A DNA stretch of 64,000 nt, from the NCBI RefSeq assembly GCF_013167455.1, contig NZ_CP038328.1. One strand, 5' to 3'. The stretch is from Escherichia coli O157:H7. Lineage in GTDB: Bacteria > Pseudomonadota > Gammaproteobacteria > Enterobacterales > Enterobacteriaceae. How positions within the stretch are numbered: the stretch's first letter is position 1; every line of letters starts with the position of its first letter. Of the stretch, positions 10,041-30,203 are shown piece after piece. The notes beneath the pieces were generated by a model that did not search any database, had not been told where the DNA came from, and saw only the letters and a list, made by a program, of their open reading frames with translations. A program made the position numbers and the translations under genes.

Positions 10041-10116
<76 letters not shown>

Positions 10117-10169
10117 GTTTAAAAGACATCGGCGTCAGCGGATGTCTGGCTGAAAGGCCTGAAGAATTT

Positions 10170-10243
10170 GGCGCGTTAACAAAGCGGTTATGTAGCGGAT
10201 TGCAAATCCGTCTAGTCCGGTTCGACTCCGGAACGCGCCTCCA
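10170..10243 (+). tRNA. cysT: tRNA-Cys (anticodon GCA)
   Basis: 74 nt ggcgcgttaacaaagcggttatgtagcggattGCAaatccg...ggttcgactccggaacgcgcctcca. Confidence 0.95.
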
Positions 10244-10255
10244 CTTTCTTCCCGA

Positions 10256-10342
10256 GCCCGGATGGTGGAATCGGTAGACACAAGGGATTTAAAATCCCTC
10301 GGCGTTCGCGCTGTGCGGGTTCAAGTCCCGCTCCGGGTACCA
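10256..10342 (+). tRNA. leuZ: tRNA-Leu (anticodon TAA), intact copy; prophage integration target
   Basis: 87 nt gcccggatggtggaatcggtagacacaagggattTAAaatccc...ggttcaagtcccgctccgggtacca, with long variable arm. Confidence 0.95.
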
Positions 10343-12400: not shown

Positions 12401-13291
12401 TCAGGCTGCCAGATCATCGTTTCCGATGGAAGCATAATAAGCTTTTTCTGCTTCTGCCGGAGGAGTATGGCCCAGCCTTCCCAGCAATCGTCGATTGTTA
12501 TACCAGTCCACCCACGTTAGTGTGGCCAGTTCCACTTCTGCACGGTTTTTCCAGCTCTTACGGTGTATTACCTCCGCTTTGTAAAGACCATTGATGCTCT
12601 CAGCCATCGCGTTGTCATACGAGTCGCCTGTACTCCCTGTTGATGCCAGTAATCCGGCTTCTTTTAGTCGCTCCGTATAGGCCAGTGACACATACTGAGA
12701 GCCTTTATCGCTGTGATGGATGGTGCCAGACGGACGACGGGCCCACAACGCCTGCTCCAGCGCATCCAGCACGAATGTCGTTTCCATAGACGATGAGACC
12801 CGCCACCCCACGATGTATCCGGCAAACACATCAATGATAAACGCCACATAGACGAAGCCCTGCCATGTGCTGACGTAAGTAAAATCAGCCACCCACAGCT
12901 GGTCAGGTCGTTCTGCCACGAACTGACGGTTTACGCGGTCGCCTGCGGCAACGGCTTTCCGGCTGATGGTCGTACGGACCTTTTTACCCCGGAGAACACC
13001 GGCAAGTCCCATAACCGCCATGAGACGTGCCACTGTACATCTGGCCACCCTGATTCCTTCCCGTAACAACTGACGCCAGACTTTACGCACACCGTACACC
13101 TGATGATTTTCATCGTATACGCGCTGTATCTCTCTCTTCAGCCAGTCGTCGTGCTGCGCACGGGCACTGCGTTTATCCGGATGATGTCGCTGTTGCTGAC
13201 AATGGTAATACGTTGACGGGGCAATATGCAGTTCGCTGCATACCGGTCCGACCCCGTACTGCTCACGCAGCTTATCCAGCAGTGGCATCAT
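12401..13291 (-). CDS. IS3-family transposase OrfB (DDE integrase domain)
   Basis: 296 aa, [16 protein letters not shown]...; rve-type catalytic domain recognised. Confidence 0.85.
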
Positions 13292-13614
13292 TTTTTCCAG
13301 AGGCGGTCGAACTCCGCCTTCGCAAAATAAGCGGAAGCCTGGCGAAGGATATCGTTACTGCGGCGCAGTTCACGATTTTCACGTTCCAGCTCTTTCAGAC
13401 GCTGACGTTCAGCGCTGGTGAGCCCACCATCACCGCCCCCGGTATCCCGCTCATGCTGGCGAACCCAGACACGCAGAGTCTCCGGCGTACAGCCAATCTT
13501 TGGGGCAATGGAACAAATTGCCGCCCACTGTGAGTCATATTCATCCTGACTTTCCAGAACCATACGAATCGCCCGCTGACGGACTTCGGGGGAAAAACGA
13601 GTATTTTTAGTCAT
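13288..13614 (-). CDS. IS3-family transposase OrfA (HTH / leucine zipper)
   Basis: 108 aa, [22 protein letters not shown]...; overlaps orfB as expected for a -1 frameshift fusion. Confidence 0.85.
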
Positions 13615-19513: not shown

Positions 19514-19930
19514 TTATTGTGGGGCGACTGGCCACTCAACATCCGCTGCTACTGTTGTATCAACACGATTCAACAATACCCGATATGTCTTCCATGCAGC
19601 CAGTAACGATGCCTCTTCCTCCGTCGCAATATCCAAATCTACGGCATCCTGAAGTGGCGCAATATGCTCACTGGCTACCTGCATCAGGCTGTTTTTTGTT
19701 TCTTCTGCCTCCCGTACCCGAAACAGTTTTTCTGCTTCTGCATCTTTCGCCCAGGATGTGCCGTTCCACTTCTGACACTCTCCATCCGGCGACAACCAGG
19801 TAACATTTTCCGGTAACGGACCGAGTTCAGAAATAAATAACGCGTCGCCGGAAGCCACGTCATAAACCGTTTTACCCCGATGATCTTCAACGAGATGCCA
19901 CGATGCCTCATTACTGTTGAAAACAGCCAC
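19514..19930 (-). CDS. tail fibre assembly protein (Tfa family), 5'-truncated; the reading frame continues upstream to 20046 without a start
   Basis: C-terminal Tfa region recognised; the upstream frame 19931-20046 translates [38 protein letters not shown] and runs into IS629 copy 2. Confidence 0.75.
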
Positions 19931-20046: not shown

Positions 20047-21104
20047 TGAACCGCCCCGGGAATCCTGGAGACTAAACTCCCTGAGAAAGAGGTAAACAGG
20101 ATGACTAAAAATACACGTTTTTCCCCCGAGGTCCGTCAACGGGCAGTCCGTATGGTTCTGGAAAGTCAGGGCGAATATGACTCACAATGGGCGGCAATTT
20201 GTTCCATTGCCCCAAAGATTGGCTGTACACCAGAGACTCTGCGTGTGTGGGTTCGTCAGCATGAGCGGGATACCGGGGGCGGTGATGGTGGACTCACCAC
20301 CGCTGAACGTCAGCGTCTGAAAGAGCTGGAACGTGAAAATCGTGAACTGCGCCGCAGTAACGATATCCTTCGCCAGGCTTCCGCTTATTTTGCGAAGGCG
20401 GAGTTCGACCGCCTCTGGAAAAAATAATGCCGCTGCTGGATAAGCTGCGTGAGCAGTACGGGGTCGGACCGGTATGCAGTGAACTGCATATTGCCCCGTC
20501 AACGGATTACCACTGTCAGCAACAGCGACATCATCCGGATAAACGCAGTGCCCGTGCGCAGCGCGATGACTGGCTGAAGAGAGAGATACAGCGCGTATAC
20601 GATGAAAATCATCAGGTGTACGGTGTGCGTAAAGTCTGGCGCCAGTTGTTACGCGAAGGTATCAGGGTGGCCAGATGTACAGTGGCGCGCCTCATGGCGG
20701 TTATGGGACTTGCCGGTGTTCTCCGGGGTAAAAAGGTCCGTACTACCGTCAGCCGGAAAGCCGTTTCCGCAGGCGACCGCGTAAACCGTCAGTTCGTGGC
20801 AGAACGTCCTGACCAGCTGTGGGTGGCTGATTTTACTTACGTCAGCACATGGCAGGGCTTCGTCTATGTGGCGTTCATCATTGATGTGTTTTCCGGATGT
20901 ATCGTGGGGTGGCGAGTCTCATCGTCTATGGAAACGACATTCGTGCTGGATGCACTGGAGCAGGCGTTGTGGGCCCGTCGGCCGTCCGGCACAGTCCATC
21001 ACAGTGATAAAGGTTCTCAGTATGTATCACTGGCCTATACGGAGCGACTAAAAGAAGCAAAACTGCTGGCATCAACAGGGAGTACAGGTGACTCGTATGA
21101 CAAT
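20047..21104 (+). mobile_element. IS3-family IS629-like element, copy 2, 3'-truncated (~1058 of ~1310 bp), inverted relative to copy 1
   Basis: Left IR TGAACCGCCCCGGGAATCCTGGAG at 20047; similarity to copy 1 stops after ...gactcgtatgacaa (~21104). Confidence 0.85.
20101..20427 (+). CDS. IS3-family transposase OrfA
   Basis: 108 aa, nearly identical to copy 1 OrfA (a few substitutions). Confidence 0.85.
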
Positions 21105-21454: not shown

Positions 21455-22414
21455 TTACTCCTTGTTCATTGCGTACAACCCATTAACCAGAGCAAACTGT
21501 GGCACCCCGTCCGCGATGAAAGTCGCATTAACTCCGCAGGCTTCGCGGATAGCGGTTGCCACAATCTCCGCCCCGCCACCGACAACCATCACCCGCCCGT
21601 AACCCGAAAAAACCGCCAGCGCGCGGATCACGCGTTGTTTCAGTGTTTCTTCCTTTTCACGAATAACCGCCATCAGGCTGGCGTAATGCGCGTCATTGTG
21701 GATGTGCTGGCGCAGCCAGGCTTCATCATGGCGATGTTCGATAATGGTATTGGCGATGTGGTGACTGGTGCGCATACCGTTAGTGGCCATCACCGACAGT
21801 ACGGCATCGGCCATCAGAGAAACGCCTACGTGTGGATCGCAAAACACCTGGCTGATACCTGCCAGTTGCCCCTGAACCTTTGCCACATCCAGCGTGGTTC
21901 CGCCCAAATCCACAATCAGCAGGGATTCAAACGGACTCATGTCAGCCAGTGCCTTAAAGCCAGCAGGAATGGATTCAGGCATAACCCGTACGTTACGGAT
22001 AGTGAATGCTTCGCCGTTCTGGTACTCCACCGGGCGCATGACGTTCGCTTTTTTGCGGTTGATGTTGGCCATGTCCGGCTGTGCGTTTGTATCGAAATAC
22101 TCGCTCAGTGGCAGGGTGACAACCACATCCACTTCCTGTGGTGTGATGCCTGATTTGACCAGCGCGTGATGAATGGCAATTACATTCACATCGCTGTACT
22201 GGTATTGCGTGTCGGTCGTCTGGACAAAGCGATCGCTGACCGGATCAAAACCATAGCGCACGCCATCAAGCATGTAGTTCGCGGGCTGCGTGCCACCGAA
22301 TGGCGCAGACCATTCCGACTTGAAGCTGTTCGGGCTGATGGCGTTGCGGCGTTCGCCGTTCTCAGTCCATGCCAGCTTGATGTTGGTGGAGCCGTCGTCG
22401 ATACAAATTTTCAT
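21455..22414 (-). CDS. ParM/StbA-like actin-family partition ATPase
   Basis: 319 aa; actin-fold motifs IDDGSTNIK (phosphate 1), LIVDLGGTTLD (phosphate 2), VMVVGGGA (adenosine). Confidence 0.75.
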   Translation of the reverse strand: MKICIDDGSTNIKLAWTENGERRNAISPNSFKSEWSAPFGGTQPANYMLDGVRYGFDPVSDRFVQTTDTQYQYSDVNVIAIHHALVKSGITPQEVDVVVTLPLSEYFDTNAQPDMANINRKKANVMRPVEYQNGEAFTIRNVRVMPESIPAGFKALADMSPFESLLIVDLGGTTLDVAKVQGQLAGISQVFCDPHVGVSLMADAVLSVMATNGMRTSHHIANTIIEHRHDEAWLRQHIHNDAHYASLMAVIREKEETLKQRVIRALAVFSGYGRVMVVGGGAEIVATAIREACGVNATFIADGVPQFALVNGLYAMNKE

Positions 22415-25757: not shown

Positions 25758-25988
25758 TTAATGGAGTTTGTTTTGCTGCTGGATGAGCTGTTGAAACTCG
25801 TGCAGATCATCCGCCAGATAGCTGAAAACAGAGGCGGAATAAATGTTTGATAGTGCGTGGCTGCGCTCATGCAGCATATTGATGTGCATGATTTGCGCGA
25901 CGCGTGATGCGCGGGAAAGTCTGCGGTTGATTTCAGTCTGGATGTGACGACGCTCCGCGATAGCGCGGTGCTGTTTGCGGTCTGCCAT
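25758..25988 (-). CDS. hypothetical prophage early protein
   Basis: 76-aa ORF in the early operon. Confidence 0.4.
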   Translation of the reverse strand: MADRKQHRAIAERRHIQTEINRRLSRASRVAQIMHINMLHERSHALSNIYSASVFSYLADDLHEFQQLIQQQNKLH

Positions 25989-26310
25989 GGTGTGGCCTCT
26001 TTGCTCGGTGATAGAAATAACTCACCATCCAGAGTTGAGAATCTCGGGGTGGCGAGACGTACAGGGTTCTCAACACCGGAGAGCAAAGAATCCGGCCCGA
26101 CCGAAGTCGGCCCCGTACGCCCCGCCATAATTCTGACGCGAAAAAGACGTGGCAATACAGTACGCACAAAAAAACCGCTAGCGCGGTTATGCGCTTTGCT
26201 CTGTATCGGGTTGAGAATCCCGGCACCCGTTTTATGAGGTGCAGCGGAAATGTAACCTGACCGATTGCGGCATGGCAAGCGGTTTTTTTGTGTGTGCATG
26301 TTCTGGTTTC

Positions 26311-28630: not shown

Positions 28631-28834
28631 TTAGCTGTTAGCCAAAGCGTCTTTTAACATCGCCACAAGGTTTACTTCAGGCTTTTCCATTTTGGCGCGT
28701 TTGGGGCGGATAATAATTCGACCGTCAGCCAACATCTTTTTGCATGTATTAAGAGGGATACCTGTTATCTCTGCATATTTCTGCAGGGATACATAGGGGG
28801 CATTCACATTGATATTGATGGTTATACCTGACAT
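28631..28834 (-). CDS. Cox-like small DNA-binding regulator / excisionase-type protein
   Basis: 67 aa; YAEITGIPLNTCKKMLADGRIII resembles the P2 Cox HTH region; position divergent from the repressor. Confidence 0.55.
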   Translation of the reverse strand: MSGITININVNAPYVSLQKYAEITGIPLNTCKKMLADGRIIIRPKRAKMEKPEVNLVAMLKDALANS

Positions 28835-28850
28835 CCCACTAGCCTCCTGA

Positions 28851-29057
28851 TCAGGAAGATTTGTTTTGTTCTTTCTGGGTTAGCTCTAGGCCGCGAAGGG
28901 AGATCATGCGCGCCATGTTAGAGGATGAGCGTTGTTCTTTAGCTGCCATTTCATCAATGACGGCTCGCTCCTCGAGGGACAGCCGAAGTGCCAGTCTTGG
29001 ACCTGTGGCGGTGTTACGCGGAATGCGTGATCTGGTATCGTGAAGAACTTGTTTCAT
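28851..29057 (-). CDS. ribbon-helix-helix (Arc/CopG-like) small regulator, first gene of the leftward early operon
   Basis: 68 aa; LSLEERAVIDEMAAKEQRSSSNMARMI is RHH-like; divergent from the repressor gene. Confidence 0.5.
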   Translation of the reverse strand: MKQVLHDTRSRIPRNTATGPRLALRLSLEERAVIDEMAAKEQRSSSNMARMISLRGLELTQKEQNKSS

Positions 29058-29132: not shown

Positions 29133-29537
29133 ATGAAAAATGATATTGGTCGGCGGTTGCGTGAGGAAAGGGAAAGATTGGGACTTAGTCAAGTTGCCAT
29201 GAGCGACATTGGTGGAGTCAAAAAGCTAACTCAGCTTAGATATGAGAAAGGAGATAGCTTTCCTGATGCTGCGTATTTGGCAGCGCTGTCTCGTTTTGGC
29301 CTTGATGTTCAGTATGTTGTGTTGGGAATTCACTCACCTGAAACTTATAACGATGATGAGCAGGAATTGATTACTCGCTTTCGAGCAGCTTCGTTAGATG
29401 TGAAAAACGCGGTGATTGGGGCTTTAAAAGGTGCGATCAGTGAAAAGGAAACTCAGCCATCAGGACGTGAGTTAAATATTTCTGGTGGTAATAACCGTAT
29501 CGCTGGTCGTGACTATAACGAAACTAAGGGTAGGTGA
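29133..29537 (+). CDS. prophage repressor, HTH XRE family (C/CI-like)
   Basis: 134 aa; N-terminal HTH (LREERERLGLSQVAMSDIGGVKKLTQLRYEKG); divergent from the Cox-like gene; upstream of int. Confidence 0.75.
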   Translation: MKNDIGRRLREERERLGLSQVAMSDIGGVKKLTQLRYEKGDSFPDAAYLAALSRFGLDVQYVVLGIHSPETYNDDEQELITRFRAASLDVKNAVIGALKGAISEKETQPSGRELNISGGNNRIAGRDYNETKGR

Positions 29538-29552
29538 TAGTAGGGAGGTGAC

Positions 29553-30203
29553 ATGGCCGTCAACTCAAACGGTTCAAACAATCGCGTTGCTGGGCGTGAT
29601 TTTCACGAAAAGAATATTCAGATAGAGCGATATGATGGTTCTCATACCGTCAATATCGCAATCCCTTCGAATAATGATGATGACGATCGCCCTTTGCTTA
29701 AGGCTCAGCGTAAGGAGCTAAATAGCTTGGTTGCTGCTATTGCAGAAGCTAGCAATACTGAAGCGTTTATTATTTGGCAAAAAGTACATGCGGAGATTGG
29801 TGTAGCTGGTATTGATGATATGACAGTAAATCAATATAAAACAGCGGAGAGTTTTCTGCATGCAATGCTTGAGCGATGTAAAGATCATGATGCCTGTAAG
29901 GCTCTTGTAAGTTTATTACTACGTAACAGTGAAGACTGTGGACTTCGACAAAAACTTCTGCGGTATTGCCATATCAATTTCGGTACAGGACGTTTAAACG
30001 ATCTTACTCGTTCTCAGTTACAGTCTGCATTGTCGTGGTTAGAGCAACAATCGGCATCAAGCCACATAGAGAGTTCGACCTTACCAGAAGTCCGACTTCG
30101 TGCTTCAGAATTAATCCGACTTTATCCAAAAGAAATAATATTCTTTATCTGCGTAGGGGTTTTGGTAGGCGGTGTCATTTCTAGGGCGTTTTTTAATTTG
30201 TAA
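29553..30203 (+). CDS. hypothetical tail-anchored membrane protein (cargo between repressor and integrase)
   Basis: 216 aa; one C-terminal TM helix (IIFFICVGVLVGGVISRAFF); N-terminus shares the motif NNR[IV]AGRD[YF][NH]E with the repressor C-terminus; AT-rich. Confidence 0.55.
   Translation: MAVNSNGSNNRVAGRDFHEKNIQIERYDGSHTVNIAIPSNNDDDDRPLLKAQRKELNSLVAAIAEASNTEAFIIWQKVHAEIGVAGIDDMTVNQYKTAESFLHAMLERCKDHDACKALVSLLLRNSEDCGLRQKLLRYCHINFGTGRLNDLTRSQLQSALSWLEQQSASSHIESSTLPEVRLRASELIRLYPKEIIFFICVGVLVGGVISRAFFNL

Follow-up and report, generated by a model that had tools for sequence, protein, structure and literature searches.

A peptide shared by the tail of a prophage immunity repressor and the start of the adjacent membrane protein

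Why should the last residues of a phage repressor be repeated at the very start of the membrane protein encoded next to it? The question is raised by a prophage in a 64,000-nucleotide stretch of Escherichia coli O157:H7 DNA from contig NZ_CP038328.1 (the whole stretch is called the window below). In this prophage, an immunity repressor of 134 residues (29133 to 29537, + strand) is followed by a membrane protein of 216 residues (29553 to 30203, + strand), referred to here as the partner. The repressor open reading frame (ORF) ends with ...ELNISGGNNRIAGRDYNETKGR (in its shorter form ..LNISGGNNRIAGRDYNETKGR), and the partner ORF begins with MAVNSNGSNNRVAGRDFHEKNIQ. The original prediction stated that one peptide motif stands at both places and recurs 15 nucleotides after the repressor stop codon, and direct reading of the sequence bears this out. 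The C-terminal copy spans 29466 to 29525 (+), corresponding to residues 112 to 131 of the repressor, RELNISGGNNRIAGRDYNET, and is followed by KGR and the stop codon. The N-terminal copy spans 29553 to 29612 (+), corresponding to residues 1 to 20 of the partner, MAVNSNGSNNRVAGRDFHEK. These are the only two copies in the window. The junction that separates the genes (29535 to 29552, +) contains three in-frame stop codons, TGA TAG TAG (29535 to 29543), and a Shine-Dalgarno sequence, GGAGG (29544 to 29548), located 4 nucleotides before the ATG. The second ORF opens 15 nucleotides past the first of these stops, and both ORFs are in the same reading frame.

The similarity was initially described as a 13-residue motif. 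Within this core (29484 to 29522 versus 29571 to 29609), 9 of 13 residues and 27 of 39 nucleotides are identical, and the DNA mismatches fall mostly at synonymous third positions. The core thus stands, and its true extent is longer, since the gap-free alignment carries the likeness over about 20 columns (repressor residues 112 to 131 and partner residues 1 to 20). The ungapped BLOSUM62 segment score is 62, compared to 19.6 ± 4.0 (maximum 45) for 3000 composition-preserving shuffles, none of which reached 62 (z = 10.5), which excludes a low-complexity coincidence. Identity between the copies is 0.62, 0.70 and 0.37 at codon positions 1, 2 and 3, respectively, and only 42% of the identical residues are encoded by the same codon. 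The likeness between the copies is therefore maintained by selection on the peptide, at the protein level. The same values rule out a recent local duplication or gene conversion. The suggestion that the repeat reflects a local duplication thus survives in one form only, an ancient duplication being a plausible origin of the two copies. A role of the repeat at the DNA or RNA level was rejected, the copies being direct repeats with third codon positions near random, and an Rfam scan of the repressor/partner junction gave no match. Fusion of the two ORFs by read-through or frameshifting is unlikely, as three stop codons follow one another here and both frame and spacing differ among loci.

The motif is not an accident of one strain. 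It is invariant in the 120 partner homologues listed, across Enterobacterales, and present in every evaluable upstream repressor. All 90 loci reached via the partner (10 species genomes and 80 viral contigs) have an upstream repressor that ends in the motif, with variants such as GHRIAGRDY among the tails. The 72 unique tails and the 63 unique N-termini have the invariants G-3, N0, R1, A3, G4, R5, D6, [YF]7 and E9 in common. IMG/VR viral contigs were also scanned with a degenerate DNA pattern for a single copy of the motif, pairs not being required. Among the 117 new loci obtained, 115 have a C-terminal copy followed by a same-strand ORF that starts with the motif; the remaining 2 run off the end of the sequence, hence 115 of 115 evaluable loci are paired. 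In the scanned loci, which cover both P2-like and Mu-like prophages, two unrelated phage groups, the two motif starts are separated by a median of 87 nucleotides (68 to 91 in most). The genes themselves are spaced by 0 to 15 nucleotides, or overlap, in several loci, and the repressor and partner genes appear from their arrangement to be translationally coupled. In the genome of a Symbiopectobacterium symbiont (locus L012, 3605 to 4631), the tail reads AGNNF and the partner AVRDF, both degenerate forms of the motif, and the partner gene carries a frameshift, which suggests a joint decay of the pair.

How far does the motif spread beyond these loci? A 24-column profile of the motif was compared, with no word filter, to 1.84 billion representative proteins, and 47 matches were obtained at E ≤ 0.001. 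P0121 and P0125, high-scoring internal-repeat matches in large eukaryotic-looking proteins (with Ig-like repeats in P0121), were set aside as non-relatives, as was a third match, a low-complexity repeat protein. The remaining sequences examined (42, family fragments counted) all belong to two classes: helix-turn-helix (HTH) proteins with the motif at their extreme C-terminus, Phage_CI_repr-type folds included, and membrane proteins with the motif at their extreme N-terminus. In this search, the bacterial occurrences of the motif G..NR.AGRD[YF].E are restricted to these two settings, and no housekeeping protein bearing it was found among the representatives at the same threshold. The peptide is thus found at free termini and on different domain contexts. 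The genomic contexts of the matches are Mu-like (B3-like) transposable prophages, the named hosts being Pseudomonas aeruginosa and Phytopseudomonas daroniae. In the Mu-like loci, the repressor ends with ..V[ST]G..NR.AGRD[YF]HE.. and the membrane protein that follows starts with M.I.V.G..NRVAGRDY.E, mostly at a distance of 0 to 100 nucleotides; a lipoprotein gene intervenes in locus L104.

The tails are carried by both XRE and Phage_CI_repr HTH types, representing several immunity types, and at least five HTH (immunity) types have a common C-terminal module made of helix, linker and motif. The partners include Flk_N-like proteins, a zinc-ribbon protein with two transmembrane helices, a 191-residue type, other proteins with two transmembrane helices, and a minimal type of 70 residues. 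One Mu-like operon encodes three motif-bearing proteins (the repressor, a Flk_N-like and a zinc-ribbon protein). The minimal partner consists of the motif, a short linker and a C-terminal anchor, implying that the essential role of a partner is to display the peptide at the membrane. The names of the partner clusters that were looked up go no further than "hypothetical protein", "putative transmembrane protein" or "flagella biosynthesis regulator". When isolated phages were searched with tblastn, the zinc-ribbon partner had no match, and the Flk-like partner was found in phage 520873 only, with weak matches in Ralstonia phages; no characterised phage model for the pair was found among them.

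The window repressor comprises an XRE-type HTH domain (residues 5 to 54), a two-helix region (residues 74 to 103), a flexible linker and the terminal motif. It matches the Pfam families HTH_31/HTH_3 and the repressor families phrog_8 and phrog_4. In the AlphaFold2 model, helices occupy residues 2 to 64 and 74 to 103, with a predicted local distance difference test score (pLDDT) of 71 to 94 by 10-residue block. The Foldseek matches in the PDB are all to HTH domains, those of P22 C2 and SinR among them, and none reaches E 0.001. The protein has an HTH domain and its gene opens the lysogeny operon, which diverges from a Cox/Apl-type lytic operon, as expected of a phage immunity repressor of the XRE/CI type. 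The protein has no Pfam match to an S24 peptidase domain and is just 134 residues long, and thus falls outside the self-cleaving LexA/lambda-CI class. A LexA box was sought near the switch and none was found, which leaves a link to the SOS response unsupported.

The partner consists of the motif, a strand-prone conserved segment, a helical Flk_N-like domain and a C-terminal transmembrane helix. The expectation that the downstream product is a membrane protein was confirmed by one strongly hydrophobic C-terminal segment (residues 195 to 213; 30135 to 30191, +; IIFFICVGVLVGGVISRAF), with a 19-residue hydropathy of 2.36, the maximum of the protein, the runner-up being 1.09. AlphaFold2 predicts a helix that extends up to the C-terminus. 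The conserved segment that follows the motif (29613 to 29669, +; NIQIERYDGSHTVNIAIPS) shows alternating hydrophobic residues and the invariants I24, D28, T32, N34, I37 and P38, and is left unfolded in the AlphaFold2 monomer (pLDDT 34 to 41). Residues 46 to 172 are modelled with a pLDDT above 90. The partner matches phrog_5825 (E 8.5e-103) and, over residues 37 to 166, positions 20 to 149 of the NCBIfam Flk model NF007987 (E 8.2e-16). It was rejected as a Flk orthologue, its score being 58.2 bits against a curated cut-off of 353 for this equivalog. PF27202 (Flk_N) is precomputed on nearly all of the 120 partner homologues listed; Flk_N and a single C-terminal transmembrane helix together place the partner in the class of Flk_N-domain, tail-anchored proteins. 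A Pfam-A search with the partner itself returned nothing at E ≤ 0.001, PF27202 postdating that Pfam-A version, and Foldseek found no match in the PDB for the Flk_N domain taken from the fused model described below. Experiments have established that chromosomal Flk is tail-anchored, with its anchor at the C-terminus and the rest of the protein in the cytoplasm (PMC6794478). By analogy, the N-terminus of the partner probably faces the cytoplasm, the same side as the repressor. The phage protein has 216 residues, versus 339 positions in the Flk model. Flk itself is not known to carry such an N-terminal motif.

What might the pair be doing? The reading that we favour, with a probability of roughly 40%, is one of mimicry, in which the copy anchored in the membrane imitates the tail of the repressor and binds directly to it. 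The 20-residue peptide would be a portable, terminally exposed association element. The copy of the repressor would hang on a flexible linker behind the helical dimerisation region, and the co-translated partner, through its tail anchor or transmembrane helices, would keep its own copy on the cytoplasmic side of the inner membrane. The mimic would then pair with the tail via a self-complementary interface that is also used for tail-tail pairing. Such pairing would leave a fraction of the repressor tethered or capped at the membrane, and would thereby set the amount of repressor able to assemble on the operators. Any change in the abundance, proteolysis or oligomeric state of the partner would then bear on the choice between lysis and lysogeny. 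That the copies bind each other, and that this binding affects repression, is what we infer. As both copies keep identical invariants, either a self-complementary interface or a binding site common to both would be expected; a lock-and-key pair of complementary peptides would not need identical sequences. The original prediction also proposed a functional mimic, in which the membrane protein competes for a partner that binds the repressor tail. The mimicry fits the shared invariants, the free and presumably cytoplasmic termini and the constant pairing; as for the competition, direct binding of the tail explains the data at least equally well.

The logic of the favoured reading is similar to that of SinI and AimX, which antagonise repressors through mimicry of the repressor oligomerisation segment (bioRxiv 10.1101/2025.11.23.689978). 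In SinI/SinR of Bacillus subtilis and in the AimX/AimC antirepressor-repressor pairs of arbitrium phages, the repressor is of the XRE-type HTH kind and associates through a C-terminal segment; a small protein of the same regulatory module resembles this segment and forms a hetero-complex with the repressor. Likewise, the partner shares sequence with the C-terminal segment of the repressor and is encoded by the adjacent gene, and the window repressor aligns structurally with SinR, again short of E 0.001. In those systems the shared part is the helical oligomerisation domain. Here it is an extra 20-residue terminal peptide, located beyond helices 74 to 103, non-helical and disordered in AlphaFold2 models; the mimic is anchored in the membrane, its gene lies downstream of the repressor gene in the lysogeny operon and is co-transcribed with it, and the binding is putative. 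Sequestration at the membrane is known for the soluble repressor Mlc, which is held there by PtsG. The partner would likewise inactivate or buffer a cytoplasmic repressor at the membrane, with the difference that the tether would be a shared peptide and not a folded domain.

Several results weigh against direct binding. The fusion repressor-GS20-partner was modelled with AlphaFold2 from a paired 28-row alignment. The HTH and Flk_N domains were confidently folded and both motifs were disordered (pLDDT < 50), leaving a 1:1 complex unsupported. Six alternating copies of the motif produced strands with a pLDDT of 28 and no confident stack. As both runs relied on monomer weights and on alignments of little depth, they are weak negatives, and strong conservation together with low pLDDT would be typical of peptides that become ordered only upon binding. 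Motif identity is 0.602 for cognate and 0.589 for non-cognate combinations, the cognate value being reached in 247 of 5000 permutations; within one clade the values are 0.620 and 0.612 (502 of 5000 permutations). There is thus no clear sign of pair-specific co-evolution. The four invariant charged residues and the aromatic residue also resemble a linear motif read by the folded domain of a third protein. Finally, there is no obvious reason for one operon to produce a repressor together with a protein that sequesters it.

Could there be a third partner? When the P2-like window prophage was compared with the Mu-like loci by BLASTP, only two families were common to both at E < 1e-3, the repressor and the membrane proteins that bear the motif, and no phage-encoded third partner shared by the two phage groups came to light. 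The "derepression protein", a candidate antirepressor of 76 residues, was rejected as an obligate partner, being found in only 28 of the 107 Flk-type loci that have at least 4.8 kb of upstream sequence. Since no other phage family is shared and no motif-bearing housekeeping protein was found, the module looks either self-contained or dependent on a conserved host factor.

A host factor is the basis of the explanation that competes best with direct binding. It takes up the competition proposed in the original prediction, and we consider it somewhat unlikely: both peptides would dock on one protease, adaptor or chaperone, with FtsH, ClpXP and Lon as candidates, and the membrane copy would be a decoy that buffers the repressor. 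If both peptides had to fit one conserved pocket, identical invariants in both copies and no clear pair-specific covariation would be expected, as observed. The conserved charged and aromatic residues resemble those of a short linear motif, neither copy is ordered by itself in the AlphaFold2 models, and the presence of the module in Enterobacterales and Pseudomonas without a shared nearby phage gene would make the third partner a conserved host protein. Precedents exist. FtsH degrades lambda CII and is competitively inhibited by CIII, and the sensitivity of the Mu repressor to ClpXP depends on its C-terminal tail. In these systems as in the present one, the stability of a lysogeny regulator would depend on a terminal tail and a co-expressed product would compete for the protease; unlike CIII, the competitor here is anchored in the membrane and reproduces the peptide exactly, and the link to a protease is putative. 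However, the motif occurs at the C-terminus and at the N-terminus alike, ruling out any degron that depends on a free carboxylate. A degron would also be expected to occur sometimes without its decoy, whereas pairing is strict in the evaluable scanned loci, and no candidate emerged, the derepression protein included.

A different possibility, which we judge improbable, is that the peptide is an amyloid-like signalling motif. Once the partner clusters, its N-terminal copies would seed a cross-beta structure; the repressor tails would be drawn into it and the repressor inactivated, by analogy with HET-S/NWD2 or Bab/Agp. Amyloid signalling pairs, including the E. coli Bab/Agp pair, have been described (bioRxiv 10.1101/2024.11.07.622273 and 10.1101/2020.01.06.895854), and the Bab paper gives an AlphaFold model for BASS11. 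The resemblance to BASS and HET-s motifs lies in the adjacent genes, the C-terminal then N-terminal location of the motif, its length (about 21 residues here, about 21 to 25 residues as a class) and its conserved G and N. The short hydrophobic alternation [IV]N[VI]SG and the flexible linker ahead of the motif point in the same direction, Bab/Agp is prophage-borne like the window pair, and the Mu-like operon with three motif-bearing proteins is consistent with several sensors acting on one effector. Yet the core of the peptide is rich in invariant charges (R, R, D and E), so that like charges would stack in register, and the six-copy AlphaFold2 model contains no confident beta-arch stack. The N-terminal carriers are membrane proteins instead of NLR, TPR, STAND or other oligomerising sensors, the C-terminal carrier is an HTH repressor instead of a membrane-targeting Bell/HeLo cell-death effector, the 70-residue partner has no sensor domain, and the motifs of cognate pairs show no clear excess of likeness over those of non-cognate pairs. 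In a templating variant, to which we give equally little credence, membrane copies clustered by envelope damage or superinfection would capture the tails and irreversibly end lysogeny of P2-like and Mu-like prophages whose repressors lack S24; if true, this would be the first amyloid-type signal on a bacterial transcription factor.

Least probable of all is an absence of cross-talk, with an old duplication at the junction having left a general oligomerisation or stability peptide that each protein uses independently: adjacency and the 68 to 91 nucleotide register are the expected trace of a small tandem duplication and both proteins probably oligomerise, but joint transfer onto unrelated HTH folds and membrane proteins, strict pairing and the motif-plus-anchor partner are left unexplained, and unpaired motif-bearing proteins are absent from the 1.84 billion representatives at E ≤ 0.001.

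In the literature searched, a repressor/membrane-protein pair that shares a motif is nowhere described. The module, akin to mimic antagonists of repressors and to gene pairs with terminal motifs, thus appears to connect the control of lysogeny with the cell membrane in a way not previously described. The control of lysogeny in P2-like and Mu-like prophages with S24-lacking repressors is poorly understood. A conserved peptide that couples the repressor to a membrane-anchored partner, be it physically or through competition, would represent a new input into the lysis/lysogeny decision, either as a route for envelope or membrane signals or as a buffer of repressor dose. As the consensus is the same in heteroimmune phages, in Enterobacterales and in Pseudomonas, cross-talk of co-resident prophages is predicted, including in E. 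coli O157:H7 and P. aeruginosa. Being short, terminal and portable, the peptide should be easily tested and might be reused as a tethering tag.

The window is 100% identical to E. coli O157:H7 chromosomes and 97.9% identical to phage 520873 (Peduoviridae, Xuanwuvirus). The prophage extends from 10041 to 31587, from a tRNA Gly-Cys-Leu cluster (10041 to 10342) to the int gene beside yecA. It is a degraded P2-like remnant, as it measures only about 21 kb and contains RNA elements associated with insertion sequences, namely ALIL pseudoknots at 13217 to 13333 and 20382 to 20498 and an IS009 RNA at 19551 to 19749. In the lysogeny operon, the repressor and membrane protein genes, annotated only as "transcriptional regulator" and "hypothetical protein", are followed by a gene for a secreted DUF2511 protein (30233 to 30580, +; RefSeq annotation; phrog_2950), a variable passenger that is missing or replaced at other loci. 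The last gene, beside yecA, encodes a tyrosine integrase (30586 to 31587, +). The divergent lytic operon starts with genes for an Arc-like repressor (28851 to 29057; phrog_3431) and a Cox-like excisionase/repressor (28631 to 28834; phrog_575), which together span 28631 to 29057 on the - strand and are named after the annotation of phage 520873. In the record of this phage (locus L002, NC_049344, 4938 to 5978), the partner gene lacks an annotation and is split over three tblastn matches, and the annotated integrase consists of two fragments; NC_049344 therefore probably carries frameshifts or pseudogenes.

Other features of the prophage lie on the - strand. A 320-nucleotide, apparently non-coding gap in the early operon contains Rfam-level matches to isrK (26168 to 26242, -) and C4 antisense RNA (26045 to 26132, -). 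It is located directly upstream of the gene for the 76-residue derepression protein (25758 to 25988, -; phrog_3688), and the whole stretch (25758 to 26242, -) looks like a P1/P7-style, RNA-controlled antirepressor cassette in a P2-like prophage. A 319-residue ORF (21455 to 22414, -), which adjoins the replication endonuclease gene, matches the partition-protein family phrog_691 (E 1.1e-89).

In the Mu-like loci, a protein that has a signal-peptide-like N-terminus and the conserved C-terminal peptide ..[SP]Y[DE]EYQRRY.EI.G[QR] is encoded just downstream of the partner gene. It was observed in L093 (3492 to 3983, between two partner genes), L101 (3601 to 4179), L105 (3413 to 4141) and L106 (3158 to 3562), and is likely a lipoprotein. 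In a Phytopseudomonas daroniae prophage, the repressor/zinc-ribbon pair is immediately followed by the gene of a TIR_2-domain protein (L103, 3483 to 4328), which is a possible defence gene.

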